Positions 26,065 through 61,820 of a stretch of 64,000 nt of DNA are shown here, one piece after another. A program made the translations under genes and the position numbers. Source of the stretch: a virus; the IMG/VR virus record IMGVR_UViG_3300045988_103705. One strand, 5' to 3'. Each line of letters opens with the position of its first letter. The stretch's first letter is position 1. Below the pieces are notes generated by a model that was not told where the DNA came from, made no database searches, and saw only the letters and a list, made by a program, of their open reading frames with translations.

Positions 26065-26082
26065 ATATATAAAAGAATTGCT

Positions 26083-28026: not shown

Positions 28027-28029
28027 ATA

Positions 28030-28637: not shown

Positions 28638-28657
28638 AAACTTCCTTTCCTCTTGTT

Positions 28658-28733: not shown

Positions 28734-28738
28734 ATAGA

Positions 28739-28856: not shown

Positions 28857-29026
28857 AAATGTACCAGTTTCTGGCCTCCACCACTTTGTTTAATTATAGC
28901 TTGAACAAAGAAAAAGCATGGGTTAAAAACTGCTATCAAGCAGCAAGATAATTTTCGAAATAATCTTCGTCAGTTAATTTTTAAGTCGCTTCGTAAGGTG
29001 ATTGCCTACCCGTGTGTTTTAGCCTT

Positions 29027-29809
29027 TTAGTCCCCAATCGAATCCAGATTATCAGCCCCATGTGTATACTTCCACTTATATCCTGCCGCAGTTTTGCGTT
29101 TTCCTCTAGCGCATTCTCCAATATGTCTATTGTTATATTCTTTCACCGCGGCCGCTAAAGTGGGCCATTCTTTAACTAAAGTACCATCAATCGTATATTG
29201 TAATACTGATTTAGACCTTGAGGCATATAGATTTCTTTCCTTCAATATATTTTTAATCGTATCAAAGTCATGATGATATTTTTTAGTTAAATCTGTAATT
29301 GTAGTACCTTGAGAATATTCTCTACAAATAGAATCTTTCTCTTGTTGAGAGATCTCGCTATATGAAGTATATGTTTGTTTATTTCTTAGTCCTAACTCTT
29401 CAAGCAAATCTCTTAACCGATTAGGTTGGATTCTTAAATCTTTAGTAATTTCGGTTAAAGTTTTTTCATCTTTATGATGAAGATAATACTCAACTGCTTT
29501 ATCTATATCTGTATAATATGGATCATTCTGCCCACCGCGAGTTGAATTATACCCGTATTCTTGAGAATTATAATAAGCAATCTAAAAGCGTTCTCTTTCA
29601 TTAAGATACTCAGTAGGACATTCTTCAATCATAGAAATAGAAAAATGTTCACTCCCAAGTTCACGAATAGCTTTATGGAATTTACTATTATCTTTATTTA
29701 CTTTAGCATCATATAAATGTTCTTTTAATCGAGATTCTAAAGTTCCACGAGTCTAACCAATATAAATCTAATCGTTAATATCATTAGAAATCTTGTAGAT
29801 GTATGACAT
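29027..29809 (-). CDS. GIY-YIG homing endonuclease, TAG-recoded
   Basis: N-terminus MSYIYKISNDIND(Q)IYIG(Q)TRGTLESRLKEH (GIY..YIG..R..E); three in-frame TAG; C-terminal AAGYKWKY DNA-binding module; 261 codons. Confidence 0.6.
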
Positions 29810-29940
29810 ATTTATGTCTCCTTTCAACAGATTTAATTGGCTCCTCTTGCTTTCGTTGCAGAAATAATCAAATACTAGACTATATAATGCGCAAGAGGAG
29901 AGATACATAAACACTTCAAGAAATTTTGTCCTTGCGGACT

Positions 29941-30015
29941 GGTGGGCCACCGAGGACTCGAACCTCGTCCCGTAGGGCTTCAACCTACTGCTCTGCCTGT
30001 TAAGCTAATGGCCCA
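29941..30015 (-). tRNA. tRNA-Phe(GAA)
   Basis: anticodon stem GTAGG/CCTAC, loop TTGAAGC. Confidence 0.7.
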
Positions 30016-30095
30016 TAGGCTCTCTATGTGAGGCGATGCTCAACTCACAACCAAGACGCGCGCTCTTGTGTTTTCCACTTTTAAACTAATAGAGA

Positions 30096-30172
30096 TGGTA
30101 CCCCGTATTGGACTTGAACCAATGACCTACCGCTTAGAAGGCGGTTGCTCTTTCCAGCTGAGCTAACGGGGC
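30096..30172 (-). tRNA. tRNA-Arg(UCU)
   Basis: anticodon stem ACCGC/GCGGT, loop CTTCTAA. Confidence 0.7.
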
Positions 30173-30184
30173 AAATAAGGAGCA

Positions 30185-30418
30185 TTAAGCTACTCCAGCT
30201 TTTCTTGCTACTCTTGCAAGAATTTTATAGTCTGTACTATCTTCTGCAACCAATTTACATGGCTTTCCAATTAGAGCAAATAAACCAAGCAGACTACGAG
30301 CATCAACCATAATCATACCGTCATTAGAATGAACCCAAAGTAAATCTGGAGTTTTACTCGCTACGGCATTTAGACGCTCAACATCACTTGTGCTTTTGAT
30401 ATTAATATCCATTACCAT
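30185..30418 (-). CDS. hypothetical protein
   Basis: 77 aa. Confidence 0.35.
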   Translation of the reverse strand: MVMDINIKSTSDVERLNAVASKTPDLLWVHSNDGMIMVDARSLLGLFALIGKPCKLVAEDSTDYKILARVARKAGVA

Positions 30419-30433
30419 TTTATCGACCTCCTT

Positions 30434-30685
30434 TTATATTCTCCATGTACGAAACTCTTTGAACTGCTCTTCCAGATCTTGTTGATAGTTATAAACTTCG
30501 AGAACCCGTTGCATATTTAAGCTATTAGTCCTATCAATAAGACTAATCGCTTCATTTCTATCAACTGCATAAATAGGGTAATCTTCAAAGGAAAATTCAT
30601 CAACTGCAATAATGCAGTATTGATTGATACCATTATCACCACGGATTACCATATCGCGAACTTCTGCATAACTTGCTATAGACAT
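30434..30685 (-). CDS. hypothetical protein
   Basis: 83 aa. Confidence 0.35.
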   Translation of the reverse strand: MSIASYAEVRDMVIRGDNGINQYCIIAVDEFSFEDYPIYAVDRNEAISLIDRTNSLNMQRVLEVYNYQQDLEEQFKEFRTWRI

Positions 30686-30703
30686 GGCACTCTCCCCTTT
30701 TAT

Positions 30704-30778
30704 TGGCAGGGCGAGTAGGATTCGAACCTACAGTCATGGTTTTGGAGACCATTGGTTTAGCCATTAACCGATCGCCCT
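30704..30778 (-). tRNA. tRNA-Trp(CCA)
   Basis: anticodon stem ATGGT/ACCAT, loop CTCCAAA; G73. Confidence 0.7.
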
Positions 30779-31017
30779 ATGTAAGCTGAGCGTCCCCAGC
30801 CCTAATCGAGTTACTTTGGAGCTGCTTCCACTGACGGGCGAACTCGATAAACAAAAGCCTTTTGTTCTACACTCTAGTCAAAGCAGCATGACACCCTAGT
30901 GTAGCATGGCCTCTGTGGTCTTTGTCCCACAAAGAATTTTTCGAACCGAACTCTTTGCACATGATAGAATTTTGCGTTAGGTATTCACCCTGCCATCTAT
31001 CAAGGCTGACATTCGGT

Positions 31018-31094
31018 TGGTGCTCCGAGGCAGATTTGAACTGCCGACCTCGCGATTATCAGTCGCGTATTCTAACCAACTGAACTACCGAAGC
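31018..31094 (-). tRNA. tRNA-Ile(GAU)
   Basis: anticodon stem CGCGA/TCGCG, loop CTGATAA. Confidence 0.7.
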
Positions 31095-31330
31095 ATATAA
31101 TAGGTTCGTTTCGGCGTCACCCGCATTGAGGAGAACCATTTCCCCAGTCTGAGGCCTTAGGGCATACCTCGACGACAGCCCAGCGTTATGTCCGCCAACA
31201 GAAAGTTTTTTGACACCCAGTTTATCACTTTCAACTTTTCCGCCGAAGAATGGCGTGGCTTTCCTTTATACGCCTCCGAGGAGGAGCTTCCCGCAGTCTA
31301 TTCGCCCCGGCTACGAGGGGTGGAGCAAGA

Positions 31331-31406
31331 TACCGGATTCGAACCGGCCCTTTCTGCTTGGAAGGCAGACGTGCTAGCCGCTAACACTAATCCTGCATAT
31401 GGTAGT
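31331..31406 (-). tRNA. tRNA-Gly(UCC)
   Basis: anticodon stem TCTGC/GCAGA, loop CTTCCAA; U73. Confidence 0.7.
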
Positions 31407-31677
31407 TTCCCTGTTTTTTAGAGGTACTACCTAACCCAAGTCGACTTTGTCGTTTGTTCACAGATAACCCGCTCAAACAAAACAAACCAAAATGCGGAGA
31501 TGAACGAAATTGTTTTCTTCTTCTTGAATCAGAGAATCGTCATCAAGTTGTCCCTAAGTCATGCAGTCTTCGTAACGCCAGACTACCAGAAACGCTACTC
31601 GGTTTAACCTTGACTGAAAATTCTCGTGCACAGAATAACAGTTGTGTCTCACTCAAGAGTAGAAATGGTGCGTGTGG

Positions 31678-31754
31678 CGAGATTCGAACTCGCGACTCCC
31701 TGCTTAAAAGGCAGGTGCTCTAGCCTACTGAGCTACACACGCGACTGTAAACTT
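31678..31754 (-). tRNA. tRNA-Lys(UUU)
   Basis: anticodon stem CCTGC/GCAGG, loop CTTTTAA. Confidence 0.7.
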
Positions 31755-31994
31755 TTAAAGTTCACTTAGGATATTATCGAGAATCTTTTCAAAATCTTCA
31801 TCCTCAACATAGAACATCTCATTCATAGTTTTACGATCAGTAAGAGAATGATCTGCATTACATCTACAAACTAGCACTTCAAGAAATTGCCAAAAGCGCA
31901 GATTTGGATTAGTCTTTCGCCAAATAACCTCAATCTTATTAGCAATACTAGAAATGCGATTTGCGTCTCTCACACTTAATCCTCCTCTAGCCAC
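31755..31994 (-). CDS. hypothetical protein
   Basis: 79 aa. Confidence 0.35.
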   Translation of the reverse strand: MARGGLSVRDANRISSIANKIEVIWRKTNPNLRFWQFLEVLVCRCNADHSLTDRKTMNEMFYVEDEDFEKILDNILSEL

Positions 31995-32251
31995 ATATCT
32001 TCACTAAACAATTCTCGATATTTGTCATCATCGACAATTAACTGTCTACATCTGCGGGCTTCAGGCTTTGCGTCGTATCTATCAAGGAATTTAGCATCAT
32101 CAGTCAAGAACCCTTGCACTAAATCTTCTTTATCCCATTCATACCCCATCTGATATGCTTCTTCGAGGCAATCTGCATGGCGCTTCCCGCAAATAATTAC
32201 AGGGTACTTACTAAAGTGAGGAATAAATTTAATTGCAGAAGCAATAATCAT
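31976..32251 (-). CDS. hypothetical protein
   Basis: 91 aa. Confidence 0.35.
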   Translation of the reverse strand: MIIASAIKFIPHFSKYPVIICGKRHADCLEEAYQMGYEWDKEDLVQGFLTDDAKFLDRYDAKPEARRCRQLIVDDDKYRELFSEDMWLEED

Positions 32252-32524
32252 AACTCAAAACTTCCTTTCCTTAACTTTCTATATATATTATATAATAAAA
32301 ATTAAGAATTTTCAAAAAGATTTTTATGCTTGAGTTTTCTATTAAAGGAACCTTTTCCTTTCTTTGCTCTTGTTATAGAACCTCTCTGTTTAAAATGAAG
32401 ATATTCTTGCAGCTCTTCTGGAGATTTCTTTTGAGCCTGCTTTATAGTTTTTAAATTCATTTTACTAGACCCCTTTTCATCTTATTATGTACCAAAAACA
32501 TATGATTTAAAGTTGCTGAATAGG

Positions 32525-32601
32525 TCTATGGGGTGTACGACGAGACTTGAACTCGCACCTCTCAGAGCCACAATCTGATGCTCTACCAATTAAGCTACGC
32601 A
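32525..32601 (-). tRNA. tRNA-His(GUG) with an encoded G(-1)
   Basis: anticodon stem TCAGA/TCTGA, loop TTGTGGC; an extra 5' G pairs with C73; CCA encoded. Confidence 0.65.
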
Positions 32602-32786
32602 CAACATATTGGCAATAGATTTTAATATCGGGTATTAGCCTCAGGCCTTTGCGCTCGGAATTGGCGGTACAATTCTCTGCGCCCTATCTAACCCTATCCG
32701 ACTCGATTTACCATACGGACTGCTTGATAAAGTGGCCACAATATCTTGCAGGCTTTCTTGCCGCGTTTAAACGCCTCTGCCGAGGC

Positions 32787-32862
32787 TGGAGCTGGATAAG
32801 AGACTCGAACTCTTAACCTATCGCTTACAAGGCGATTGCTCTACCTATTGAGCTAATCCAGC
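32787..32862 (-). tRNA. tRNA-Thr(UGU)
   Basis: anticodon stem ATCGC/GCGAT, loop CTTGTAA. Confidence 0.7.
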
Positions 32863-33246
32863 GTATAATGGCCGGTATAAACCCCGGCTCGGGTTAAGAA
32901 AATCGACAGTATGCTCGTTTCCGCACTATACACCAACCGCCAGCTTAATCGCCGGCCGTATGGGAGTCGAACCCATTCCTCTGTCTTTCGGTTTTGGCCT
33001 TCTCTTCCCCATAGGCTCCCGCAGCAGTACCGAAAAACTTGACGAGATTATATTGAAGTTGTTTTTGTCTCATTGAGACCGGCAGGCGGCTATACTTCCA
33101 AACCTTCACAAGCCCTATTATTTCGTTAATCGCTTGTATTGTCACCGCAAGCAAACGGAACTACTTAGTCGGTTTTCGTAGTTGACACAATAGCCTCGTT
33201 TATATGCGGCCGGCATATACAACAGTGTCTTATCCCGATTGGCTAT

Positions 33247-33339
33247 TGGCGAAGGGGAGAGGATTCGAACCTCCGGACCGTGTTTCCACAATCAAGGGAT
33301 TAGCAATCCCTCGCATTCAACCTACTCTGCCACCCCTCC
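33247..33339 (-). tRNA. tRNA-Ser(GCU)
   Basis: class II; anticodon stem AGGGA/TCCCT, loop TTGCTAA; long variable arm. Confidence 0.7.
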
Positions 33340-33737
33340 AAATATGTTTCCTCTGCGTTTTATGGGCTTGGAACCATCACCTATCGGCGGCCGCATTAAA
33401 CATAAAAGTTATCTATCACTATGAATAACTTCTGTTTCTGCGAAAATGAAATCATCAATATCCATCATTTTTTAATACCTCCTTAATTTATTTTAATCGG
33501 TAGTGCCATTCTAACAGCCTATCTTGCACTTTTGATAGGTTCCCGATTCGCTAGTCTTTTATATATAAATCTCTATTGAGAAAATAATCGGTGCCAACTT
33601 AATTTTTTAACGAGGTCGTTGACTTCCATCCCCGAACTCTTTTCGTTACTCCAGATTTTATCTCTCAGCCAGCCGATTTCTTTATACAGCGCTATATAAA
33701 GCCGCTTCAACTGAGCCTTTAGGTTCTTGGCACCTAA

Positions 33738-33812
33738 TGGGTGCGGGAGCGAGAATTGAACTCGCGTAATCGAGTTTATGAGACTCGACTGGGAACCAAC
33801 ACCCTTCCCGCG
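33738..33812 (-). tRNA. tRNA-Met(CAU) with a C1.A72 mismatch (initiator-like acceptor end)
   Basis: anticodon stem CGAGT/ACTCG, loop CTCATAA; acceptor CGCGGGA/TCCCGCA leaves C1 opposite A72; C73; no GGG/CCC in the anticodon stem. Confidence 0.55.
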
Positions 33813-34124
33813 ATATACAGCTATTAGAATTAAATTATAATGAAACCAAAATATATTTTTACTACTTAACGCCTAGACACTCTTGAGTTGGTCTGCGTTG
33901 CCACTCCTCGCTTTTTATTCTCGCCTCATATATTCTATATTTTGGAATAACTCTAATAGCCACGGTACTCTTGCGCCCCTCCGCTGGATGTATCAGCCGG
34001 AACCGTTTCACTTTAATTAAGCAAGGGCGTGCCACATATCAATAATTCATTCTTGCCGTACCATACTCTACGCACAAGAAAGGCCCGTCTTTTCTTTCAC
34101 TCGAAACTGTGGAACCCATACATC

Positions 34125-34202
34125 TGGTGACCTTGGAGGGATTCGAACCCATCAACCTCCACCTTGAGAGGGTGGCGACTTTGCCATTTCGTCGACAAGG
34201 CC
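34125..34202 (-). tRNA. tRNA with anticodon CUC (Glu-type); weak T and D stems
   Basis: perfect anticodon stem CCACC/GGTGG, loop CTCTCAA; acceptor GGCCTTG/CAAGGTC. Confidence 0.45.
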
Positions 34203-34241
34203 ATTTAAAGAGCAGTTTATTGACTTGCTCAGGTCTTTTAG

Positions 34242-34478
34242 TTAATCGCTAAGTTCGACGGCGCCACATTTAGTGAACACCTGCACGGGAGTTCCGTTCA
34301 ACTCGTTGTCCTCAAGAATGGAATAATCACAAATATAAACATTTGTGTTACCAACCTTGCGAAGCGGGTTTCCGCAATTAGAACACTTACGTTCCTTTTC
34401 CACATTCTGCGGAACCTTAATTCCGAGAGCCTTACCAAGCTCTACGAAAGAGTTGAACTTCCCGTGAACATTCTTCAT
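34242..34478 (-). CDS. zinc-ribbon protein
   Basis: CSNC...C pattern, 78 aa. Confidence 0.35.
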   Translation of the reverse strand: MKNVHGKFNSFVELGKALGIKVPQNVEKERKCSNCGNPLRKVGNTNVYICDYSILEDNELNGTPVQVFTKCGAVELSD

Positions 34479-34506
34479 AATAGCAATCTCCTTTTCTATT
34501 GTTTAA

Positions 34507-34581
34507 TGGTACTCGGTACGGGAGTCGAACCCGTGTTTCTGGCGTGAAAGGCCAGCGTCTTTACCGCTTGACTAACCGAGC
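34507..34581 (-). tRNA. tRNA-Glu(UUC)
   Basis: anticodon stem CTGGC/GCCAG, loop CTTTCAC. Confidence 0.7.
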
Positions 34582-34833
34582 ATATCTGCACTTTTAATAA
34601 TCTCTTTCTGTCTTATTTAATAATAGCTATTGTTTATTATAAGCTATACTGTCATTACTATATATAAAGAGAATATTAACTTATCTTCTAGTTGGTGAAC
34701 AGCGGCGTCACTGAAAACCACCTATTTCTATTAAGGACGGAAATAGGAATGCCCTATTGTTCTTATGGCAATGAAATCAATAAAAACCTGTAATCATTAG
34801 ACGGTATCATATATAATTATTAGTAGATACCTA

Positions 34834-34909
34834 TGGTGGAACATACGAGGGTCGAACTCGTGACCTCCTGCTTGCAAGGCAGGCGCTCTCCCAACTGAGC
34901 TAATGCCCC
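34834..34909 (-). tRNA. tRNA-Ala(UGC)
   Basis: G3.U70 in the acceptor GGGGCAT/ATGTTCC; loop CTTGCAA. Confidence 0.75.
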
Positions 34910-35123
34910 ATATTGTGATTAAGATGATTGGTCGTGTCAATCAAGGAGAACTACGCTCTAATTTATCGGCTACTACAGTCCAATGTGCCAGGCATCAACC
35001 TAAAAGGGACACCGCATTGCTGATTCGCTTGCGCGCTATCGCTGCCTATATACGACTTGCGATACTTTGTTCTTTCTTAACCTTATATAAATATTATACA
35101 ATATTTTTTATTGTTTTTCAAAT

Positions 35124-35164
35124 TGGCGATGACGACGGGGTTTGAACCCGTGACCTTCGGCGTG
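35124..35164 (-). tRNA. tRNA-Asp(GUC) 3' exon
   Basis: CACGCCGAAGGTCACGGGTTCAAACCCCGTCGTCATCGCCA; 3' anticodon stem GCCGA, T-arm, acceptor 3' strand CGTCATC, G73, CCA. Confidence 0.65.
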
Positions 35165-35632
35165 CCTTAGTGATTATAGTGTGGATAGAATATCTTCAGC
35201 TTTAAAATCTTTAGCCTGCTTTTGAGTAGATAATCTTGTGGCAACAGTCCAAAACTTAGTCTCTACTGTTCCAAAAACGGGGAACATATAAAACTTTCCA
35301 TTAAACTCTGTCATAAAATAGTCTACATCTTTAGCAGAATAAGTCATTTTTTTAACTTTTCCGTTTTCTCGCACTTCATATTTAGTACGAACAAGAAATC
35401 CAGTTTCCTCTACCGGCATAGCGTGTTTTACTTGAATTTTATAGAATTTGCCGTTCTTCTCTATCACTAAATCATACTTTTGATGATTTCCAATCGGGAT
35501 AAGAACATTCCAACCGTTCTCAATTAAATACACCTAACATTTAAGCTCTGTAATATCTCCAATCTGAGATGGATTTAATTTCTCCAATGCTATTAATCCT
35601 CTCTCTAAAGATATTCTCTATCAATTTCCAAG
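35165..35632 (-). other. intervening sequence (putative self-splicing intron) in the tRNA-Asp anticodon loop
   Basis: 468 nt between anticodon positions 35 and 36; ends in G; contains ORF 35174..35533. Confidence 0.5.
35174..35533 (-). CDS. intron-encoded ORF (possible homing endonuclease)
   Basis: 119 aa, balanced composition, YDLVIEKNGKFYKIQVK segment; entirely inside the tRNA-Asp intervening sequence. Confidence 0.4.
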   Translation of the reverse strand: MYLIENGWNVLIPIGNHQKYDLVIEKNGKFYKIQVKHAMPVEETGFLVRTKYEVRENGKVKKMTYSAKDVDYFMTEFNGKFYMFPVFGTVETKFWTVATRLSTQKQAKDFKAEDILSTL

Positions 35633-35668
35633 ACAGGCCGACGTTCTAGCCTACTGAACTACGCCACC
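35633..35668 (-). tRNA. tRNA-Asp(GUC) 5' exon
   Basis: GGTGGCGTAGTTCAGTAGGCTAGAACGTCGGCCTGT; acceptor pairs with the 3' exon (two G.U pairs); the joined loop is CTGTCAC as in bacterial tRNA-Asp. Confidence 0.65.
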
Positions 35669-35772
35669 GTATAAGGCGAGGAAGGGTCATACGCACCCCG
35701 TGTGCTTTGCGCCTCGTCGTTCACATATATCACACTTCTGACTTATTGGGCATGGGAAATCAGTAGAAACCA

Positions 35773-35859
35773 TGGTGCGCATGATGGGACTTGAACCCAT
35801 ACGCTCTTACGAACACGAGCACCTCAAGCTCGCCTGTCTGCCGATTCCAGCACACGCGC
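35773..35859 (-). tRNA. tRNA-Leu(GAG)
   Basis: class II; anticodon stem CGAGC/GCTCG, loop TTGAGGT. Confidence 0.7.
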
Positions 35860-36016
35860 ATATTTCTATGGTATTGATCGAGTTCCAAGGCTTCCTCTTT
35901 TAATACTGACTAGCCATCATAAATGCTTGGCCATTTACGACAAGAAATCCAGTCTTCAACTACGGGCCATAGCTCCGCCGGTTATATGGGTTTAAGACAA
36001 TGTCACCGGAACCATC

Positions 36017-36093
36017 TGGTGTTCCCGGCGGGAGTCGAACCCGCAACATCATGGTTCTAAACCACGCGTGTCTGCCTATTGCACCACGAGAAC
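36017..36093 (-). tRNA. tRNA with anticodon UAG in a class-I cloverleaf
   Basis: anticodon stem CGTGG/CCATG, loop TTTAGAA; 5-nt variable loop; acceptor GTTCTCG/CGGGAAC, A73, CCA. Confidence 0.55.
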
Positions 36094-36219
36094 ATAAAAG
36101 AGCAACTATTTGTTTCAGAACTACCCGTCGCTCTATTGGGCCAGCCTATTATTTTAGTTCGCAGTGGACGAATTGAGAGTTTAGGGTTAAAGTCGCGGCG
36201 CTACTCACAAACTCGACTT

Positions 36220-36296
36220 TGGCGGGAAGGGTGGGGCTCGAACCCACGACATCTTGCTTAACAGGCAAGCGCTCTACTCTTCTGAGCTACCGACCC
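36220..36296 (-). tRNA. tRNA-Asn(GUU); acceptor with two mismatches
   Basis: anticodon stem CTTGC/GCAAG, loop CTGTTAA; T-arm GTGGGTTCGAGCCCCAC. Confidence 0.55.
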
Positions 36297-36409
36297 AAGC
36301 TCAAGGCAGAATAAATAAACTTTCTTAAACCAAAAATAAGTGTTTTATTTAATAAAAGATTTGCTGTGTCTGCCTTATATAAATATTATACAATATTTTT
36401 TATTGTTTT

Positions 36410-36616
36410 TCAAAAAAGATTCAGTTGTTTAGCTTCATCATAAGAAATACCAAAGGTATCCTTGAAAGTTGCGTTAAAGTTCTCCCACTGTTCCTCGGGG
36501 CCACCAACTCCACCATTCATAAGCCAAATAGCATCACAAATACTATCCTCATTTTTATAACAAGAAAGAGCCTCGGCCGCGAGTTGTGCAAGATATAACT
36601 TCTTATCCATATGCAA
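36410..36616 (-). CDS. hypothetical protein
   Basis: 68 aa. Confidence 0.3.
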   Translation of the reverse strand: MHMDKKLYLAQLAAEALSCYKNEDSICDAIWLMNGGVGGPEEQWENFNATFKDTFGISYDEAKQLNLF

Positions 36617-36695
36617 CTTCCTTTCTTACTTTCTATAAATATTATATCATATTTATAAAAGTTTTTCAAATGTTTTCAAGACGCTAGCTATTTAG

Positions 36696-36769
36696 CTCCG
36701 GAAATCGGATTCGAACCGATAATTTTTCACTTTGAGTTGAAATGTCTTAACCATTTGACTATTCTGGAA
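36696..36769 (-). tRNA. tRNA-like gene with an irregular anticodon loop (possible CAA)
   Basis: acceptor TCCAGAA/TTCCGGA (one mismatch), T-arm ATCGGTTCGAATCCGAT, stem TTTCA/TGAAA around an 8-nt loop ACTCAAAG; no encoded CCA. Confidence 0.4.
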
Positions 36770-36820
36770 ATAGATTTGCTGTATGCGTCTTATAGCAAGA
36801 GGGCCCTCCTATTGGGTCTG

Positions 36821-36896
36821 TCCTCTTAAATGGTACTCCGAGCTGGACTCGAACCAAGCATCAAGCGATTATAAGTCGCCCGTTCTAACCTTTGAA
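36821..36896 (-). tRNA. tRNA-Ile(UAU)
   Basis: anticodon stem GGCGA/TCGCT, loop CTTATAA; acceptor ACTCCGG/TCGGAGT, A73, CCA. Confidence 0.6.
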
Positions 36897-37383
36897 CTAC
36901 CGGAGTATAGATAAAGTGAGTATTTTATTTAACGCATATCAGCCCCACTCACGCCTTACCTGTGCAATTATTTATAGTTACTGTCGATAACTTATATAAA
37001 TATTATATAATATTTATTTTTATTTTTCAAATAATCAATAAGGAGTAGGTGTTCCATAAAGACCAGTAATATCAATATCATTACATAGATCTCTAGTCAC
37101 ACAAGTTTCAAGTTCTGCCTGAGAAATAATCTCTTCCTCCGCTAGAGGTTCATCACTCTCAATAGTAGCAAGGATAGTGAAAGAAACTGCATAAGTATAT
37201 TTACTCATAAACTCAAAACTTCCTTTCCTTAACTTTCTATATATATTATATAATAATTTTTTTTATTTTTCAAGGAAGCGTAAGTTCTAGAAAATATTTC
37301 TCTTACGCTTCCCTTTTAGTAAGGAAGTTTGTACTATTATTAAACTTTATATTAAATATCTTAATTACCCATACCCAAAATTT

Positions 37384-45200: not shown

Positions 45201-45707
45201 TTACTCAAGGTCGATTACATAATTCTCTTGGATAAATGAATCTTCTGGAATATAGATGGTATACTCGGTAGACCAGGGTCCAAGCAGGAAATTCAAAACT
45301 GGGTTTTTAAAACGGATTTTGTTTTCTTTTATGTATGGGGCATCATCTGTATTCTTAATATAGGACTGATCTGCCTCAATAGATTTGGCGGTTATACCTT
45401 TATCTGTTTGATACAGGAATGAGTAATAGAGCCCATCTTCTGTATAATAACGGCCTACGTAAGAACTAAAATTATCACTCAAAGCAGTAATAGAATATGT
45501 TTGAGTGGTTTTCGCAGAATAGGTTGCAGGTTCAACAAAAATAACAATACCACAAATTATAATCGCAAATAAGAAAGCGATAAATGCTGAAAGTACAACT
45601 CCGAGAATTGTAGAGAATAGATATTCTGCAAAAGAGTCACAGTCTTTATATAATACTATAAGAGATGTAACCATGAGTAATATAAAGAATCCAATAGCTA
45701 ATGGCAT
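45201..45707 (-). CDS. membrane protein
   Basis: two N-terminal TM helices. Confidence 0.4.
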   Translation of the reverse strand: MPLAIGFFILLMVTSLIVLYKDCDSFAEYLFSTILGVVLSAFIAFLFAIIICGIVIFVEPATYSAKTTQTYSITALSDNFSSYVGRYYTEDGLYYSFLYQTDKGITAKSIEADQSYIKNTDDAPYIKENKIRFKNPVLNFLLGPWSTEYTIYIPEDSFIQENYVIDLE

Positions 45708-45872
45708 AAGTAAAACCTCTTTTCTTATTTATATAAATATATTACCATATTTTATTAAGATACGCAAGTAAATCTTATGGATTATAACGAACCGTCATAA
45801 TTTCTCACGGATGCGGGAATTTTTTAGACAGAAAAATTGGCAATCCCGCAGGAATTTTAATAAAATGGTCAT

Positions 45873-45995
45873 AGAGGCATTTTTGTCCAAAATTTTCTAC
45901 GAGTGTCCAAAAATTTCTAATAAAATGTCCAATTTTTTCTAATAAGTTGTCCAGAAATTTCTAATGGTTGGTCTAAAATCTGATATTGTGGACAT
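45873..45995. repeat. iteron array: five direct repeats of about 24 bp, TGTCCAAAAATTTCTAATAAAA
   Basis: tgtccaaaattttctac / tgtccaaaaatttctaataaaa / tgtccaattttttctaataag / ttgtccagaaatttctaatgg / ttggtctaaaatctgatattg, then the inverted repeat TGTGGACA; directly upstream of the RHH gene. Confidence 0.7.
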
Positions 45996-46089
45996 AGTAT
46001 AATTGTAATAAAAAAATATTAAAAAAGTTGGACAACCGCAATTAATTATGTTATAATAAAAGTAAAGATATAGTAGAGAGGTGATTTAT

Positions 46090-46228
46090 ATGGCTTAGAT
46101 AGCAGCTCGTATTTCTGAGGAAGAAAAACAAGAGTTAGAAAAGTATTGTAGAGAGCACGATATTAAATTGTCATAGCTTATTAGATGGGCTATAAAAGAA
46201 TATATTGAGAAAAATAAAGTAGACTAAA
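46090..46228 (+). CDS. ribbon-helix-helix (CopG/Arc-like) DNA-binding protein, TAG-recoded; frame continuity across the A-run at 46138-46143 needs checking
   Basis: GAGAGGTGA Shine-Dalgarno plus ATG. A one-base frame adjustment in the A-run gives MAQIAARISEEEKQELEKYCREHDIKLSQLIRWAIKEYIEKNKVD. This has the full ribbon-helix-helix pattern and uses two TAG as Gln. Confidence 0.4.
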
Positions 46229-46254
46229 GGAGATTAAACTAAATGACTAATGAT

Positions 46255-46464
46255 ACTTATAAAGTTTTTACAGTAAAGTTAGCACGCAAACTCTGTGATC
46301 TTGGTTTTATTATTGTTGGAACTGTTCCTAATGTTTAGAAACCTTGGTTAAATGTTTATCTTTTTGAAGATAGTTAGGATTTAAGGGATGCAGTTTAGAA
46401 GTATAAAGGGATAAGTTCGCTATTGGAGGATGATTGCCATGGCAGACAAAAGAAGAAGTCCTAA
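46255..46464 (+). CDS. hypothetical protein, TAG-recoded; start region unresolved
   Basis: frame KVFTVKLARKLCDLGFIIVGTVPNV(Q)KPWLNVYLFEDS(Q)DLRDAV(Q)KYKG... ends TAA at 46462-46464; the nearby ATG at 46244 may need a 1-nt frame adjustment. Confidence 0.3.
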
Positions 46465-46828
46465 TTAGCGAACTATTAATCATATTCATAAGGAACCATG
46501 TGATACTAATAATATATATGCTAGGATTAATAAGGAAGCGTTATTTGCGGCCCGTAGAGAGTTGACAGATGGAGAGTTTTCTTTGTGGATATTTTTTGCT
46601 AGTCAATCTGAGAAGTTAATTGATTATGATTTTGGGCCTACTATTATAGAAAAAGAGCTTGGTATAAAGAGAGCGAAATATACAAGTGCAATAGATGGAT
46701 TGGTAAAAAAGGGATATTTAGTTCCAGTTGAGAGAAAAGGATATTACGATTTTTACGAGATTCCTATTGATAGTGACGACGACAAGTATAATTATATAGC
46801 TCCAAACGGAGAGAAATTTTCTTTTTAA
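46439..46828 (+). CDS. winged-helix protein (replication-initiator or regulator-like), one in-frame TAG
   Basis: GGAGGA plus ATG at 46439; TAG at 46466-46468; ...IEKELGIKRAKYTSAIDGLVKKGYLV winged-helix segment; the track ORF 46562..46828 is its C-terminal part. Confidence 0.45.
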
Positions 46829-46837
46829 TCGTATTTC

Positions 46838-47100
46838 TGCAATACTATGAAAAATTTCATGTATTTCTGAGAATACTATGATTTCATCATATTGTGAAAA
46901 AGCTATGAAATTTTCATGTATTTGTTGGAAAGCGATGAAATTGTTTTCATGGTATTCTGATAATACTATGAAATTAAATAAAAAGGATTTTCATAGCTTT
47001 CCAACAATACCATGTCATAGTATTCTGACAATACCATGAAAGTAAATAAAAATCCATTTCATGGTATTCTGACAATACAACAAATATAACATATATTAGA
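46838..47100. repeat. second iteron array (TTTCATGGTATTCTGACAATAC-type repeats; ATGAAA/TTTCAT inverted motifs)
   Basis: at least seven partly inverted copies of aatactatgaaa / tttcatggtattctga(c/t)aatac in 260 bp of AT-rich ORF-free sequence. Confidence 0.65.
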
Positions 47101-47173
47101 TAACAGAGTTAAGATAACAGTCGCGACTTTTTTTATGTATTTGTGAAAAAGCGATGAGTAGGAGGATTAAGGC

Positions 47174-47593
47174 ATGGAAGTATTTAAACCGATTAAGGTA
47201 GAAAATTATCAATTCATGAAGAATGGATTAAATTAGTATGAACCAGTATTAGTTTACTTTAAAGATGATGAAGAAGAAGGCAAGGTATATTTTGTAAAGA
47301 ATAAATTTGATGATAAGTTAGAAGAATGGATGGAAGAGAATTTAAAGGTAGAAGGAAGAAGTAGAGTTATAGTAGATAAGTATCATAATAGGATAAGTAT
47401 AGATGTTTTTACTCAAGATTTAGAGGACTCTATAACCGATTTAGAAAAACGAATTGAAAAGTTAGAAGAAGGTTTTAGAGAAATCGAATTGAAAAATCGA
47501 GATAAAAATGGAGAGATATATGATTTGGTTGGAAGGATAAGAGAGATAAATAGAACTGGATAGAGATGTAGATTATCTTTATATGAAGATTGA
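47174..47593 (+). CDS. hypothetical coiled-coil protein, TAG-recoded
   Basis: GGAGGA plus ATG at 47174; TAG at 47237 and 47561 read through to TGA at 47591. Confidence 0.45.
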
Positions 47594-47726
47594 AAGAAAT
47601 TAAAGGAAATTAAAAGAAGTTTATAAAATGATGGAGTTGGGTGCCGATCGGGTCTAGGTACGAACCATCACAACACTCGTCACAACGATCGTAAACCTAG
47701 CCTTCCGCAATTATAATATATAAAAA

Positions 47727-47760
47727 AGGAGAGAAGCTACAATACTTCTCTCCTTTAATC
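47727..47760. terminator. bidirectional hairpin terminator
   Basis: aaaaaaggagagaagctacaatacttctctcctttaatcttttt. Confidence 0.6.
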
Positions 47761-47772
47761 TTTTTCCTCTTG

Positions 47773-48228
47773 TTACTTTAGATGCTTCAAAAACTCCATA
47801 ATATTATCTTCATCAGACCGAGTATTACCCTTAATCTGAGACATACTCTTCGCGAGAGTATCAGAAATAGAATCAACAGCAATGTCAATTACTTCATCAA
47901 GACTCTCTGCATTAACAACCTTAGCGGAAGTCTTAGCAGTTACAGTCATAGCCTGCATAAACTGCTCAATATCCTTAGCTGTCCACTTAGGATTGCTCTT
48001 GCTATAAACCAACGCAGCCACACGGCCAACGTCATCCTCAGTAAGAGACAAGTCATCAACATTTTCATAGAAAGTAGACTCAATCTCATCCAGAAGATTA
48101 TCTCGCTCATGGTCTGCGGCGTTAGCCTCGGAGATTCTATTCATGGCATCAGTAAATGCCTTTGCAATCTCCTCCTGAGTAGAACCATTCTGCATTGCAT
48201 CACGAATCATAATCTCATAACTATTCAT
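47773..48228 (-). CDS. hypothetical protein
   Basis: 151 aa acidic. Confidence 0.4.
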   Translation of the reverse strand: MNSYEIMIRDAMQNGSTQEEIAKAFTDAMNRISEANAADHERDNLLDEIESTFYENVDDLSLTEDDVGRVAALVYSKSNPKWTAKDIEQFMQAMTVTAKTSAKVVNAESLDEVIDIAVDSISDTLAKSMSQIKGNTRSDEDNIMEFLKHLK

Positions 48229-54027: not shown

Positions 54028-54489
54028 TTAACTTTCACATATATTTGCAAGAAATCTTGCAGAAAGTTTAACCATGTCATGGACAGATTCTTCGTTATTG
54101 CTATTTTTATAGCAAATAAAACCAACCTGGTCGCCATTCACAAGAATTGGTGTAATAAACATACTTTCCCATTTTGTCGCCGAACTGCGAATATCAATCC
54201 AGTCATCGGGAACTCTTGTAATTCCAAAGGAACGCGGCCCGCATAAAATTCCATCATTGTCAAAAATAGCCGCGGCGATTCCGTTAGATGAAAGGGCATT
54301 TTGCATTTGTTTAGCGTAAGAGGAAAATTCTCCCATTATAGAATATTTCTTAAAAACTACGCCGCCATCTTCTTCAAGAAAAATCTCTAATGGGTCGCCT
54401 TCTCTAATATGAAGGTTTCTACGGATTTCCTTTGGAATTACTATCCGGCCCAAATCATCAATACGGCGCACAATTCCAGTAGCTTTCAT
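54028..54489 (-). CDS. SpoVT/AbrB-family transcriptional regulator (swapped-hairpin N-domain plus C-terminal sensor-like domain)
   Basis: GIVRRIDDLGRIVIPKEIRRNL. Confidence 0.6.
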   Translation of the reverse strand: MKATGIVRRIDDLGRIVIPKEIRRNLHIREGDPLEIFLEEDGGVVFKKYSIMGEFSSYAKQMQNALSSNGIAAAIFDNDGILCGPRSFGITRVPDDWIDIRSSATKWESMFITPILVNGDQVGFICYKNSNNEESVHDMVKLSARFLANICES

Positions 54490-58528: not shown

Positions 58529-59061
58529 ACCTTTAGCAGTTTGTCAATACCTTTTTGAAATTTTTTAATTTTCAAAGTGCCGTGCTTTTGTCTCTGTCCT
58601 ACTGGACAAGTCCAGTTTACTACCAAAACGCCCACTTGTCAATAGTTTTTTTGAAATTTCTTTCTCTCTCTTTTGCACAAAATAAATAGCGTCTTGTTGT
58701 GCAGTTTGCACAAATCCTTTACGCGCGTATTCCTTTAGGGGCGTGCTTTCTTGCTTTCGTACTTTAGCGAGTGAAAGAGGCTGTCTACACTTCAATACTT
58801 TACCATGTGAAAGAGGGGCGTGTATTTTGGGAAAAACTGGAAATTTTTTGGTGAAATCGTTCTGCCACGCCATTTCAAAATCTAAATCGACTTTTCAATC
58901 TCAATAACGAAAAAGAGAGAAGAACTTACTTCTTCTCTCCGCATTTACACTTCTTCTTTAAATTATATATAATATGATCTTCCACTTTGTAAATTGGATA
59001 TAATTCTCCACAGACTGCGCATATATTATAATAATGCTTGCCGTCAAACCATACTAATACT

Positions 59062-59334
59062 TTATCCATCGTCGGTTGCCTCAAAACTAAAAATCAAATT
59101 ATATCCATCCTCAGTTTCTATCGTTTCATATCCTTTTAAGATATATCCATTCTCTAGTTTAATATTAATCGCATCAGATCTCCACATTGTAGGAATATAC
59201 TCTAGCCTTGGATAACGATTGTTCTCCTCCACGCAAGCAGTTAACAACAGTACGATTAATACTATGTTAATTATAAAGCTGATACTTCTTCCCAATTTTG
59301 TCAATCTCTTCCGCCTCCATTGGCCTAAATCCAA
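59062..59334 (-). CDS. small membrane/lipoprotein-like protein
   Basis: N-terminal hydrophobic segment followed by Cys. Confidence 0.35.
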   Translation of the reverse strand: MDLGQWRRKRLTKLGRSISFIINIVLIVLLLTACVEENNRYPRLEYIPTMWRSDAINIKLENGYILKGYETIETEDGYNLIFSFEATDDG

Positions 59335-59704
59335 TACACGTCAAAGTCCCTTCCGGGCCTTCGCGCTCTAACTCTGTCCTACAGGAATCGTAAATAAGCC
59401 AGTAGTCTTTATCCTCTTCCCATCCCAATTCTTTAGCCATTGCAACAGCTTTTAGCAAATCATTCTTATTCTTCGCTCTACAAACTACTTTGGTCTCCGC
59501 TTCCGCTATCCAGTTATGGAATAAGTCTCTATCGAGACTTATTCCTATATGATACATAAGACCGTCTCTTTCTTCAACGATTTCTTTGCCTCCCCAATAT
59601 AACTTCTCCAAAAGGAAAGCAATAGAAGCATGAGAAACTTGCGCGGCAAGTTTCCCTGGAGACATATTTAAATCTCGTCTTGCGATAATTAATTGCTTGA
59701 ACAT
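59267..59704 (-). CDS. peptidyl-tRNA hydrolase, PTH2 family
   Basis: QLIIARRDLNMSPGKLAAQVSHAS resembles the Pth2 VRTDL.MG.GKIAAQCSHA signature. Confidence 0.6.
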   Translation of the reverse strand: MFKQLIIARRDLNMSPGKLAAQVSHASIAFLLEKLYWGGKEIVEERDGLMYHIGISLDRDLFHNWIAEAETKVVCRAKNKNDLLKAVAMAKELGWEEDKDYWLIYDSCRTELEREGPEGTLTCIGFRPMEAEEIDKIGKKYQLYN

Positions 59705-60456
59705 TTTTCCAAAACCTCCAAGAAAGCTCTAAAATTGCGGGAATTGCGGCCTGGAATTGCAAAATAGATATTTGGAATATTATAATTGCGGGCTGCGTTT
59801 ACGAGCAAGGTAGCGACCGTTGATGGATCTTGCATAAAAACACCACAACCCCAGGCTCCCGCGATTAAATTTTCCACTCCCTTAGCCTCGGCAATTCGAT
59901 ACATAAAATTAATTCTCTCTTCCATTATCCTATTGTTTAGAGAAAGAGGAACTTGCTGATAAGTATGTGCTGTTCTATAATTAGGAGAAGCACAAGTAAT
60001 TACATCAGCTAATTTTCTACTATTGTCTTTTTCAAAGACTACATCAGGAGTATAGATAGCTCTATCAAGATATAGGGCTCGATTCAGTCTCTGTCTATTC
60101 CATGCGTAATAAGTATCATCAAAAGCAAGAAGAATAGGATAAAGGTTGCTTTCATGACACAATGCCTCTTCTTGTGCAGAGCTACCTCCAAGGAAATAAC
60201 CACCTGGATGTTTATAGCTTGCATAATTTAAGATCGCAGTCTTGCTCCGATCGGTTAAACCGAATAGACAGGATACGCTATCTTGGTCTTTAAGATAAAA
60301 GGTATTATGGTAGGTTTCTTGCGGTTTTGGCGGAAAAGGAAGATTGGGGCCAAAAATTTCAGAGTTTATAATTGCGCGATCTGTATCTTCCTTGAGTCTC
60401 ACTTTAATGTCTGCGTAATGCGATTGCGCGTGTTGTTTGAGCTCTTCTCGTTTCAT
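59689..60456 (-). CDS. microbial PARG-like macrodomain protein (ADP-ribose glycohydrolase family)
   Basis: GGYFLGGSSAQEE (GGG-x6-8-QEE catalytic signature) and AGAWGCGVF. Confidence 0.55.
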   Translation of the reverse strand: MKREELKQHAQSHYADIKVRLKEDTDRAIINSEIFGPNLPFPPKPQETYHNTFYLKDQDSVSCLFGLTDRSKTAILNYASYKHPGGYFLGGSSAQEEALCHESNLYPILLAFDDTYYAWNRQRLNRALYLDRAIYTPDVVFEKDNSRKLADVITCASPNYRTAHTYQQVPLSLNNRIMEERINFMYRIAEAKGVENLIAGAWGCGVFMQDPSTVATLLVNAARNYNIPNIYFAIPGRNSRNFRAFLEVLEKCSSN

Positions 60457-60681
60457 TTGCAGTTTCCTTTCTTCTGTGCGGTTGGGCAGAAGTGGATAAT
60501 TTAATTATCCCAATCTTCAAATAAAGTGTGTAAACTATTTGTTTCTGCCGCTAGCTTCTTTAAATATTCTCTTAATATTTTATTTTCTTTAACTTTAATT
60601 GCATAATCGCAAGTATTGTCACAGTCTGATGTGTACTACCGACCGAATCTATTATAACAATAATCAATGCAAGGACACATT

Positions 60682-61035
60682 TTACTCATATTTACACCTA
60701 TTCATTCTACAGTCTATTGTACATTGCCCTGATGCTCCCTCACAAGGAATAGCATCAGGATAGTGTTCGAAATAAGACGAGGTTAATAGAACTTCATATC
60801 CAAGTTCCCGCAGTATTCTTTCTGCGACATATCTATCTCTTAATTTAATCCATTCTTCTCTATTTACTTTTGTTTCTTCATATATTTTTCGAGATTCTTC
60901 CATATCTATTGTTATGATACCATCGGTGTTAGTTTTAAATACTGAAGGACTTTGTGTATGATAAAATTTTCGAAAGGGATTGTTAATATGAAGAACTTCT
61001 TCAGCATATTTGTCAAAATCTCCCGAAAATTTCAT
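60682..61035 (-). CDS. hypothetical protein
   Basis: probable start at MKFSGDFDKY; the longer track ORF overlaps FolD. Confidence 0.3.
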   Translation of the reverse strand: MKFSGDFDKYAEEVLHINNPFRKFYHTQSPSVFKTNTDGIITIDMEESRKIYEETKVNREEWIKLRDRYVAERILRELGYEVLLTSSYFEHYPDAIPCEGASGQCTIDCRMNRCKYE

Positions 61036-61058
61036 TATCTTTGCGCCTGTTTCGCTAA

Positions 61059-61820
61059 CTATAAACAATTTTTCATCAACCCCAATCTTGTTAATAGACC
61101 TACTCCTCCGGGGACAGGAGTTGACCATACATTATTTCTTTTTGCAATTTCATCAATTTCTACAAAGTCTCCAAGAATAATTCCTGCTTCATTTCTGCGA
61201 ATACCAACATCTATAACAATAGCGTTAGGACAGGCTTCTCTTGTTAAGCTAAATTTTCCTACCGCAGAGACAATTAAATCTGCTTGCCTTGTTAAATAGA
61301 GTTTTGTATTTATATCTGTTTTGCTATGACATACTGATACGGTCATATTTCTATCCAGTAGAGCTTTAGCCATTGGCTTTCCTACAATATCGCTTCTTCC
61401 CAAAATAACAGCAGATTTACCTTCGTAGTTAAAACCACATTCATCCAAATAGTCTATAATTCCTCTTACTGTTGCTGGAGTAATATTGCTCATAGGATTT
61501 AAACCATCCGCATCTTTAGAGATAGGTATTTGACTATAATTGAAATCAATTCCATTTGCTACTGGCATTTGAACTATTACCGCATCCCAGTCTTTCGCAT
61601 GGCCTAAGAGTAATCTTAACTCTACTGAACTATTCGCTCTAAACACTTCTGCTTCCCAACCAAGAGCATTAAAGTCTTTTATTTTATTACGAATATAAAT
61701 TTGATTTGCGGGATCCTAGGCTGTTGCGTCGATAATCATGAGTGATGGAACATTACCACTAATCTCCCGCAATTTGTTTACCTATTGTTGAAAATATTCT
61801 TTTATATTAATCTATTGCAT
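61059..61820 (-). CDS. folD: bifunctional methylene-THF dehydrogenase/cyclohydrolase FolD, TAG-recoded
   Basis: C-terminal half VILGRSDIVGKPMA...VSVCHSKT...LIVSAVGK...IVIDVGI...TPVPGGVGLLT; the N-terminal half continues upstream through at least two in-frame TAG (DATA(Q)DPANQIYIRNKIK); start uncertain. Confidence 0.55.

Follow-up and report, generated by a model that had tools for sequence, protein, structure and literature searches.

The PARG-like and Pth2 genes and their products

A stretch of 64,000 nucleotides of viral DNA from IMG/VR record IMGVR_UViG_3300045988_103705, referred to here as the window and belonging to a genome of about 146 kb, carries on its minus strand a gene for a protein resembling poly(ADP-ribose) glycohydrolases (PARG) and, next to it, a gene for a peptidyl-tRNA hydrolase of the Pth2 family. 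Both open reading frames (ORFs) were found exactly within the limits given for them in a preliminary description of this DNA (59267-60456):

59689-60456, minus strand: PARG-like ORF, 255 amino acids (aa), ATG start, TAA stop (ORF list)
59267-59704, minus strand: Pth2 ORF, 145 aa, ATG start, TAA stop (ORF list)
59689-59704, minus strand: overlap of the two ORFs, 16 nucleotides (nt), with the Pth2 ATG within the 3' end of the PARG-like ORF (read from the sequence)

Since the ORFs overlap without intervening signals, they are likely co-transcribed, and the 16-nt overlap likely also brings about translational coupling. As the number of in-frame TAG codons is zero in both ORFs, the genetic-code question raised by other genes of this phage leaves them unaffected.

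The PARG-like protein is an intact member of the bacterial-type PARG family with conserved catalytic residues. It matched the profile PF10021 (PARG_cat_microb) with E=4.3e-26 (92.5 bits; cut-off 23.5) and, over residues 17-245, the NCBIfam model TIGR02452 with E=7.3e-49 (166.7 bits; cut-off 50). Among solved proteins, sequence comparison returned the D. radiodurans PARG (DrPARG; E=1e-23) and the T. curvata PARG (TcPARG; E=7e-21), and the alignments to the PDB chains, which end at residue 217, take in both the QEE motif and the GAWGCGVF loop. The segment P84-G85-G86-Y87-...-Q95-E96-E97, i.e., GG-x8-QEE, aligned with the motif of DrPARG and TcPARG and follows the PARG signature GGG-X6-8-QEE with one deviation, a tyrosine in place of the third glycine (PGGYFLGGSSAQEE), at a position that is variable in the clade. 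The diphosphate-binding loop GxxGCGxF is present as G200-A-W-G-C-G-V-F207 (AGAWGCGVF being residues 199-207), aligning with gawgcgvf of DrPARG. In 25 homologs of 40-70% identity, G85, G86, Q95, E96, E97 and the loop G200-A-x-G-C-G-V-F207 were invariant, while W202 varied.

The AlphaFold2 (AF2) model of the PARG-like protein (predicted local distance difference test, pLDDT, 90.4; predicted template modelling score, pTM, 0.90) placed helices at residues 3-30 ahead of an alpha/beta core. With this model, Foldseek returned TcPARG (3SIG) and DrPARG (5ZDB) as best matches (TM 0.78-0.82, E~1e-16), whereas macrodomains other than PARGs reached E values of at least 4e-6 and TM values of at most 0.54, i.e., ten orders of magnitude worse. 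Thus, the protein is alike in profile, sequence and predicted fold to DrPARG (DRB0099; PDB 5ZDA-G), TcPARG (3SIG) and SCO0909, with which it shares the QEE motif, the GAWGCGVF loop and the N-terminal helical extension on the macrodomain core. It differs from the solved bacterial-type PARGs in being phage-encoded and in its identity to them of only about 23-28%.

The preliminary description had offered the reversal of ADP-ribosylation by DarT-like toxins as an example of what such a protein could do. In that case, it would free the thymidine or guanosine bases of DarT-modified phage DNA from ADP-ribose, and it does have the macrodomain fold of an ADP-ribose hydrolase; DarG-like or other antitoxin-like hydrolases that phages carry against DarTG have also been described (PMC11825919, PMC13309987). 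However, the reversal of base-linked ADP-ribosylation is the work of macrodomains of the TARG1/DarG type or of NADAR-like enzymes rather than of PARG-type enzymes (PMC11833690, PMC11825919), the latter having been characterized on ribose-ribose and phosphate-linked ADP-ribose (PMC11833690). Moreover, in a PADLOC scan that covered the pair and six further window proteins without a relevant match, the PARG-like protein matched no family, DarG included, at E<=0.01, and the Foldseek ranking by ten orders of magnitude favors PARGs over other macrodomains. A role against DarT is therefore extremely unlikely.

The Pth2 protein is likewise an intact family member with conserved catalytic residues. It matched PF01981 along the entire profile (positions 1-115 of 115; E=8.3e-22, 78 bits, cut-off 23), phrog_1866 with E=2.4e-21 and, by sequence, archaeal Pth2 structures with E=7e-15 to 1e-8. 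The motif GKLAAQVSHAS occupies residues 17-27 and contains K18, and a second segment reads D106-x-C-x-T110-E. K18 and D106/T110 aligned with their counterparts in 1RLK, 1WN2 and 1RZW, and K18, D106 and T110 were invariant in 31 homologs. We take K18 and D106 to correspond to the Lys and Asp that act in catalysis in Pth2 of S. solfataricus. The AF2 model (pLDDT 85.2) included one region at low confidence, an insertion of about 22 aa after helix 1 (about residues 33-57) that in phage relatives is between about 20 and 70 aa long. The best 14 Foldseek matches of the model were all Pth2/Bit1 proteins (TMt 0.79-0.83; 0.49 for 1rzw, an NMR model), and the next match had E=0.015.

Thus, the phage protein has the same fold (TMt about 0.82) as Pth2 of S. 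solfataricus, P. horikoshii and A. fulgidus and as human PTRH2/Bit1, and it shares with the archaeal/eukaryotic proteins the N-terminal GK motif and the D-x-x-x-T-E segment. Unlike them, it contains the insertion of about 22 aa plus a further 8 or so residues in two pieces. Its scores below the NCBIfam equivalog cut-offs mark it as a divergent member of the family, the function of which may be equivalent to that of archaeal Pth2. Many database homologs of the clade (P0154-P0171, P0174, P0183, P0227) are cut short to about 90-110 aa, with 65% coverage, or have a frame-shifted N-terminus; gene calls made in the standard code and upset by in-frame TAGs or by assembly errors may account for this, as may real decay.

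Both family assignments of the preliminary description were thus borne out, since the profiles (PF01981; PF10021 and TIGR02452), the similarity to solved structures and the predicted folds agree and place neither protein in an unrelated family; the quoted motifs GKLAAQVSHAS, GG-x8-QEE and AGAWGCGVF are all present. The remark that Pth2 is unusual in phages was overstated. PTH2 occurs across group 2/3 jumbo phages, where release of peptides from tRNAs and ribosome rescue after tRNA cleavage were proposed as its role (Iyer et al. 2021; PMC7824862), the family is represented by phrog_1866, and Pth2 matches were obtained in 17 phage records. With the PTH2 proteins of jumbo phages (XacN1 ORF295, Xoo-sp13, SCTP-2 gp326, Enterococcus phage H1_150), the window protein shares the setting of a tRNA-rich large phage, but its identity to them is only 30-37%. 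The literature search on phage Pth yielded the 2021 comparative-genomics survey and a review of toxin-antitoxin systems and nothing else, and no experimental test of a phage Pth was noticed in either.

In two of these phages, the surroundings of Pth2 were inspected. In XacN1 (L186, 170246-174458), it is clustered with a metallophosphoesterase, NADAR (YbiA-like), HAD_SAK_2 ('Swiss Army Knife RNA repair') and Nudix genes, which may be regarded as an analogous co-location of Pth2 with an ADP-ribose hydrolase of another fold; the partner is NADAR there and a PARG-type macrodomain in the window. In Enterococcus phage H1 (L187, 123920-129923), Pth2 lies among thymidylate synthase, DHFR and FolD genes, near a tRNA-Glu gene, an arrangement that echoes the FolD-PARG-Pth2 string of the window.

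A lineage-specific pairing in a variable operon

The pair sits in a variable operon adjoining a conserved anchor gene. The genes of this leftward string follow one another in the order FolD - orf148 - orf62 - PARG - Pth2 - two small ORFs, with a terminator-like hairpin behind them:

62242-63312, plus strand: conserved anchor gene, opposite the promoter-like sites, with 11 in-frame TAGs
62177-62264, minus strand: promoter-like sites in the divergent intergenic region, where the GC skew flips (consensus scan only)
61035-61859, minus strand: FolD-like gene at the head of the leftward string, full length only if four in-frame TAGs are read as sense
60501-61128, minus strand: two ORFs of unassigned family between FolD and PARG-like, 148 aa at 60682-61128 (orf148) and 62 aa at 60501-60689 (orf62, one TAG)
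58926-59334, minus strand: two small downstream ORFs, one of up to 90 aa with a hydrophobic stretch and one of 52 aa, Cys-rich (ORF list)
58914-58940, minus strand: terminator-like hairpin, 11-bp stem and T tract (consensus scan only)

The promoter-like sites near 62.2 kb are the probable start of the leftward unit, and the hairpin is its probable end. The ORF with the hydrophobic stretch probably begins later than at the listed TTG, and its homolog is located between Pth2 and PARG in the related lineage L035. No Pfam match was obtained for the two small ORFs downstream of Pth2, nor any Pfam or PADLOC match for the 148-aa and 62-aa ORFs, the former of which is kept in part of the clade. When the operon neighbors of unassigned family and ten more window ORFs were scanned against Pfam, only FolD and a SpoVT/AbrB-like regulator matched. 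The anchor gene is 65-93% identical across all pair-bearing relatives.

The neighborhoods (+/-6 kb) of 95 PARG lineages, 33 viral or metagenomic and 62 cellular, were surveyed after dereplication at 75% identity. Pth2 was present near PARG in six of the 95, all of them the nearest relatives of the window gene. Thus, the PARG-Pth2 pairing is lineage-specific and belongs to one gut-phage lineage. The pair is kept in close relatives of 65-98% identity, among which L001-L008 have the identical 16-nt overlap. Pth2 was also found near PARG in farther members of the clade, namely L021 (52%), L025/26 (55%), L024/L035/L100/L046 (41-46%) and L107 (44%); the PARG proteins of the six pair-bearing sub-lineages have diverged to 41-55% identity. 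The spacing varies, with overlaps of about 30-40 nt in L025/L026 and a 1-nt spacer in L021. Both gene orders occur (PARG-Pth2 and Pth2-PARG), the order being swapped in L035 and, with an overlap, in L100, so that overlaps are seen in either order. FolD, orf148 and the downstream genes turn over among the relatives while PARG and Pth2 remain; in the operons of L026 and L107, PARG and Pth2 were the sole homologs of window genes found besides the anchor gene.

It was considered whether the adjacency is incidental, i.e., whether two independent accessory genes with their own targets and no joint function lie in a hypervariable operon by the anchor gene. The six pair-bearing lineages form one clade that has the anchor gene in common and, in many cases, FolD and orf148 as well; in 89 of the 95 PARG lineages, the 6 kb to either side of PARG contain no Pth2; and short gene overlaps are common in phages. 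In LR756511, both genes are present about 370 kb apart. Near the PARG genes of Lak phages, phage G and a gut phage scaffold, no Pth2 was detected within 6-10 kb, and XacN1 and Enterococcus phages carry Pth2 without PARG. Incidental adjacency is at odds, however, with the persistence of the pair through neighbor turnover (L026, L107) and through the swap in gene order (L035, L100), with the pairing of Pth2 in XacN1 with NADAR, an ADP-ribose hydrolase of a different fold, and with the apparent joint decay of the two genes in L009. In the gene-map comparison, the pairing is more than plain synteny, since the two genes persist while FolD, orf148 and the genes behind the pair appear and disappear around them. 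Incidental adjacency is thus considered unlikely overall, with a chance that is still appreciable.

The decay was observed in L009 (IMGVR_UViG_3300045988_075249, about 7940-8710), in which PARG has an internal deletion of about residues 96-162 and Pth2 is left as fragments in several frames between intact flanks; both genes look decayed together. A 177-aa ORF behind PARG in L022 was tried as a divergent Pth2 and rejected, as it matched neither Pfam nor the Pth2 HMM. Among 240 listed homologs, no PARG-Pth2 fusion was found. One homolog of the PARG-like protein (P0079) is fused to DUF2493 (PF10686), and in L021 (7137-7986) genes for DUF1653, DUF488-N3a and YpsA (SLOG-type) come after the pair; these observations hint at a link to domains that bind nucleotides or ADP-ribose derivatives.

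In the literature searched, neither PARG-type enzymes in phages specifically nor a conserved pairing with Pth2 was found described. Phage Pth2 is known already, as are phage macro domains tied to RNA repair. The pair consists of members of known families, and its conserved pairing is modestly new.

RNA and tRNA as candidate substrates

For bacterial-type PARGs, SCO0909 and DRB0099 were reported as the sole hydrolase type that reverses RNA ADP-ribosylation at the 2'-OH by RhsP2; both protected E. coli from RhsP2 and also hydrolyzed 5'-phosphate-linked ADP-ribose on RNA and DNA ends (Lu et al. 2025; PMC11833690). Among the solved proteins, DRB0099 stands closest to the window protein. The DRB0099 gene lies between ligase and HD-Pnk genes (PMC11833690), whereas the PARG-like gene of the window adjoins Pth2.

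Within 6 kb of PARG, RNA-repair-type genes or metallophosphoesterases were detected by insensitive single-sequence searches in 11 of the 33 viral/metagenomic and in nine of the 62 cellular lineages, counts that are suggestive rather than statistical as the figure of 11 in 33 comes without a background rate from random phage genes. Phage-type examples include an RNA ligase gene 27 bp from PARG (L083), Thg1, DUF2828 and RlaP (L077), RNase T at a distance of 4 bp together with ligase, RlaP, MVP and Pnk (L096), and a Pnk-phosphatase-Rnl1 fusion 61 bp upstream (L022). A ligase, Pnk, phosphatase or KptA gene directly adjacent to PARG, i.e., an end-repair operon, was found in L022, L083, L096, L114, L121 and L151 and is lacking in the window. 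Thus, the same family occurs in end-healing and sealing contexts in the DRB0100-DRB0099-DRB0098 operon (ligase - PARG - HD-Pnk) and among KptA-linked PARGs of Lachnospiraceae, and the related phage lineages L022, L083 and L096 share a context like that of the DrPARG operon. Unlike in that operon, the window PARG is detached from the ligase/Pnk/RlaP block of its own phage.

KptA/Tpt1 (PF01885, E=1e-47) was located 2-61 bp from PARG in L114, L121 and L151 and nearby in L130 and L145. The genomes with KptA and PARG belong to Lachnospiraceae, Acetatifactor and Verrucomicrobiota, and L114 has an adjacent Thg1 as well. It is very unlikely that single-copy KptA would adjoin PARG in bacterial genomes by chance, and the arrangement suggests a functional KptA-PARG unit in bacteria.

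In the window, three features of the minus strand belong to RNA repair, NAD metabolism or translation:

82-18912, minus strand: distal RNA-repair and NAD gene block (Pfam and NCBIfam scans)
3946-8517, minus strand: NAD cluster with NadE, split NAMPT-like, Prs-like and isochorismatase/PncA-like genes
19040-36906, minus strand: array of 31 tRNA genes for most amino acids, with small ORFs interspersed (ARAGORN)

The RNA-repair block encodes a Band_7 protein, three metallophosphoesterases, an AAA_33/KTI12 kinase, Thg1, an RNA ligase (PF09414), an RNase T-like exonuclease, RlaP, an MVP/vault-like protein (PF11978 shoulder domain) and DUF2828/DUF7788. Near the PARG-like genes of the phage lineages L096, L077 and L098, vault-like and DUF2828 proteins are encoded again. 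In Anabaena, a tRNA operon is derepressed jointly with a TIGR02452 gene, RtcB, a slipin and a vWA protein in the translation-stress regulon of TrcR (PMC10272220), and this set of families mirrors the repertoire of the window phage. The preliminary description had combined the pair with NAD and tRNA modules into a multi-layered anti-defense repertoire. These modules do exist, comprising the 31 tRNAs, Thg1, Pnk-like kinase, RNA ligase and RlaP as well as NadE and the NAMPT-, Prs- and PncA-like proteins, but they are remote from the pair: the tRNA array, which comes closest, lies more than 20 kb off, the RNA-repair and NAD genes lie at more than 40 kb, and the NAD genes at more than 50 kb. They are genome-level context and not a linked module.

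Taken together, the identification of the pair was correct, whereas its interpretation was supported only in part and had to be redirected from DNA or signaling targets to RNA. The better-supported reading is de-ADP-ribosylation of RNA or tRNA within a toolkit for RNA repair and translation rescue. Both enzymes are probably active, to judge from their conserved residues, and relatives and context suggest their substrates and their cooperation. The PARG-like protein and Pth2 are accordingly proposed, at an even chance, to be co-expressed accessory enzymes by which a large gut phage maintains its tRNAs and translation under host attack. The QEE glutamates of the PARG-like protein would hydrolyze the O-glycosidic bond that attaches ADP-ribose to the 2'-OH of an RNA ribose, or remove an ADP-ribose cap from a 5'-phosphate RNA end, freeing ADP-ribose and restoring usable or ligatable RNA. 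Such marks could be set by ADP-ribosyltransferase toxins of the host (RhsP2-like, KptA-like) or arise as by-products of NAD-dependent RNA repair. Pth2 would hydrolyze the ester joining a peptide or an N-blocked amino acid to A76 of a tRNA and would thereby recycle tRNAs that stalled ribosomes, tRNA cleavage or acylating toxins had put out of use. If each enzyme strips a different blocking group from RNA ribose hydroxyls, this would explain why the genes are kept together in the lineage.

Several observations weigh against this proposal. Every functional statement rests on homology and context, and inherited synteny explains much of the pairing, given that all six pair-bearing lineages are one clade with the same anchor gene; L040 has PARG and FolD without Pth2. 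In the window, the pair lies outside the RNA-repair block, more than 40 kb from it, with FolD and ORFs of unassigned family as neighbors, and phmmer searches (E<=10) found no KptA or ADP-ribosyltransferase in these 64 kb of the genome. Pth2 scored under the equivalog cut-offs of NF003314 (79.5 versus 126 bits) and TIGR00283 (63.4 versus 82 bits), and in view of these scores and of the lineage-specific insertion, its exact substrate may differ. In addition, the canonical in vitro activity of PARG is directed at protein-linked poly(ADP-ribose) (PAR; PMC8120803).

The last point concerns de-ADP-ribosylation of proteins, in which the PARG-like enzyme would trim poly- or mono-ADP-ribose set by an ADP-ribosyltransferase (ART) defense of the host or by a phage ART encoded outside the window. 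TcPARG, HaPARG and DrPARG hydrolyze protein-linked PAR in vitro, DrPARG affects endogenous PAR after UV damage (PMC8120803), and fold and catalytic motif of the window protein are the same as in these PARGs. Against a protein target, bacterial PARP activity is rare and poorly evidenced, and PARG cannot take off the protein-proximal ADP-ribose and hence does not reverse mono-ADP-ribosylating toxins (PMC8120803); the window yielded no PARP or ART, and the genomic contexts point to RNA. Protein substrates are thus considered very unlikely.

Signal molecules were weighed as a further target of the PARG-like enzyme. It could cleave the 1''-2' (or 1''-3') ribose-ribose bond of gcADPR or 2'cADPR, the cyclic ADP-ribose (cADPR) compounds of Thoeris, and so disarm signaling, with Pth2 being unrelated; the product ADP-ribose could return to NAD+ via a NARP1-like pathway. 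PARG chemistry is the hydrolysis of exactly such a ribose-ribose bond (PMC11833690), and comparative-genomics surveys favor the view that many phage macro domains act on soluble derivatives of ADP-ribose (ADPR) (PMC7824862, PMC9503650). The phage glycosidase RyDEP, an RyR-domain protein, hydrolyzes 2'cADPR as well as 3'cADPR to ADPR, which feeds NARP1 (PMC13232231); the PARG-like protein would share with it the ribose-ribose O-glycosidic hydrolysis to ADP-ribose and the anti-defense setting, but RyDEP has an unrelated fold and sits inside a NARP1 operon, which the window PARG-like gene does not. The Prs-like and NAMPT-like proteins of the window score far below their NCBIfam equivalog cut-offs (89 versus 113 and 253 versus 405 bits, respectively), and might be NARP1-type Adps and Namat enzymes that rebuild NAD+ from ADP-ribose instead of serving classical salvage. 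In the NCBIfam scan, no Adps or Namat model was matched, which leaves NARP1 and classical NAD salvage unseparated; NMNAT was not seen in the window. The NAMPT-like gene consists of two overlapping ORFs, 4668-5081 and 5020-6249, the second with one TAG.

Signaling targets are disfavored, however, by the distance of more than 50 kb between the PARG-like gene and the NAD genes and by the recurrent neighbors of PARG, which are RNA-end-processing enzymes and KptA, with NadE or PncA-like genes near PARG in only four lineages. The fit of a cyclic substrate into the macrodomain pocket is also in doubt, and no link between PARG and gcADPR was found in the literature searched. Cleavage of Thoeris signals is, on this evidence, quite unlikely.

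A more specific form of the RNA proposal was also considered, namely a two-enzyme module for tRNA deblocking in which PARG takes off the ADP-ribosyl group and Pth2 the acyl or peptidyl group, returning the tRNA to service. Hosts or competing elements in gut Clostridia would then ADP-ribosylate tRNA ribose hydroxyls in an RhsP2-like manner, possibly at or near the acceptor end, which would also trap acylated or peptidyl-tRNA. Such a dedicated module is rather unlikely. If true, it would be the first phage counter-defense against RNA ADP-ribosylation and would imply an undescribed anti-phage defense in the hosts that ADP-ribosylates tRNA.

Bacterial-type PARGs are widespread, and their erasure of ADP-ribose from RNA was shown only in 2025. 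Phage-encoded copies would show that RNA ADP-ribosylation matters in infection and would point to undescribed toxins or defenses of the host. As a lead on the physiological role of these enzymes, the locus offers a natural and abundant case: a phage rich in tRNAs, RNA repair and NAD metabolism links its PARG gene with one for an enzyme of tRNA recycling, and the hypothesis can be tested with existing reagents, i.e., RhsP2-modified RNA, Tpt1-capped RNA and cADPR isomers. If the pairing is incidental, the locus is an ordinary accessory gene pair of annotation value only.

Genetic code, host and further features of the phage

TAG is apparently read as sense, probably as Gln, in some genes of the phage. 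Of the four in-frame TAGs of FolD, three lie inside conserved N-terminal sequence and one is the apparent stop at 61061. With TAG read as Gln, both FolD domains were matched (PF02882, 3.7e-38; PF00763, 3.7e-9), and independent gene calls on identical contigs gave a 261-aa FolD with both domains. It was these in-frame TAGs that settled the recoding, ORF-length statistics on stop codons not being decisive. Three tail-fiber-like ORFs (21622-24161, minus strand) have four to five in-frame TAGs each, adding to those of the anchor gene. A tRNA able to read TAG is encoded within the tRNA array:

20097-20171, minus strand: amber-suppressor tRNA, anticodon CUA (ARAGORN)

The acceptor stem and G73 of this tRNA resemble those of the phage tRNA-Gln(UUG). 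Many genes, the PARG-like and Pth2 genes included, avoid TAG wholly. One idea is that Pth2 may help the phage to cope with peptidyl-tRNA drop-off tied to the TAG recoding.

An identical PARG protein is indexed in 54 contig-collection blocks, for which 21 contigs of up to about 121 kb were read; among the entries are metagenome assemblies with names that point to human-gut cohorts. Relatives occur on contigs of about 145-149 kb, and the phage itself, with about 146-149 kb, does not reach the size of a jumbo phage. In a megablast search of 57-62 kb of the window against 50,697 phage records, nothing was found, and no close sequenced relative is present in that collection. A SpoVT/AbrB-type regulator with MazE_antitoxin and SpoVT_C domains is encoded at 54028-54489 (minus strand), and L106, a 91%-identical contig, was binned with a metagenome-assembled genome of Oscillospiraceae; both observations suggest a host among Clostridia (Oscillospiraceae).

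Almost every gene of the window lies on the minus strand. Plus-strand ORFs at 46430-46828, 47174-47593 and 62242-63312 are located in two strand-switch islands (45700-47800 and 62000-64000) with reversed GC skew and a GC content of about 0.30. Inside the tRNA array, a gene on the minus strand (24826-25947) encodes an AAA/STAND-like ATPase (PF00004, nSTAND3) that weakly matched IetA of PADLOC.

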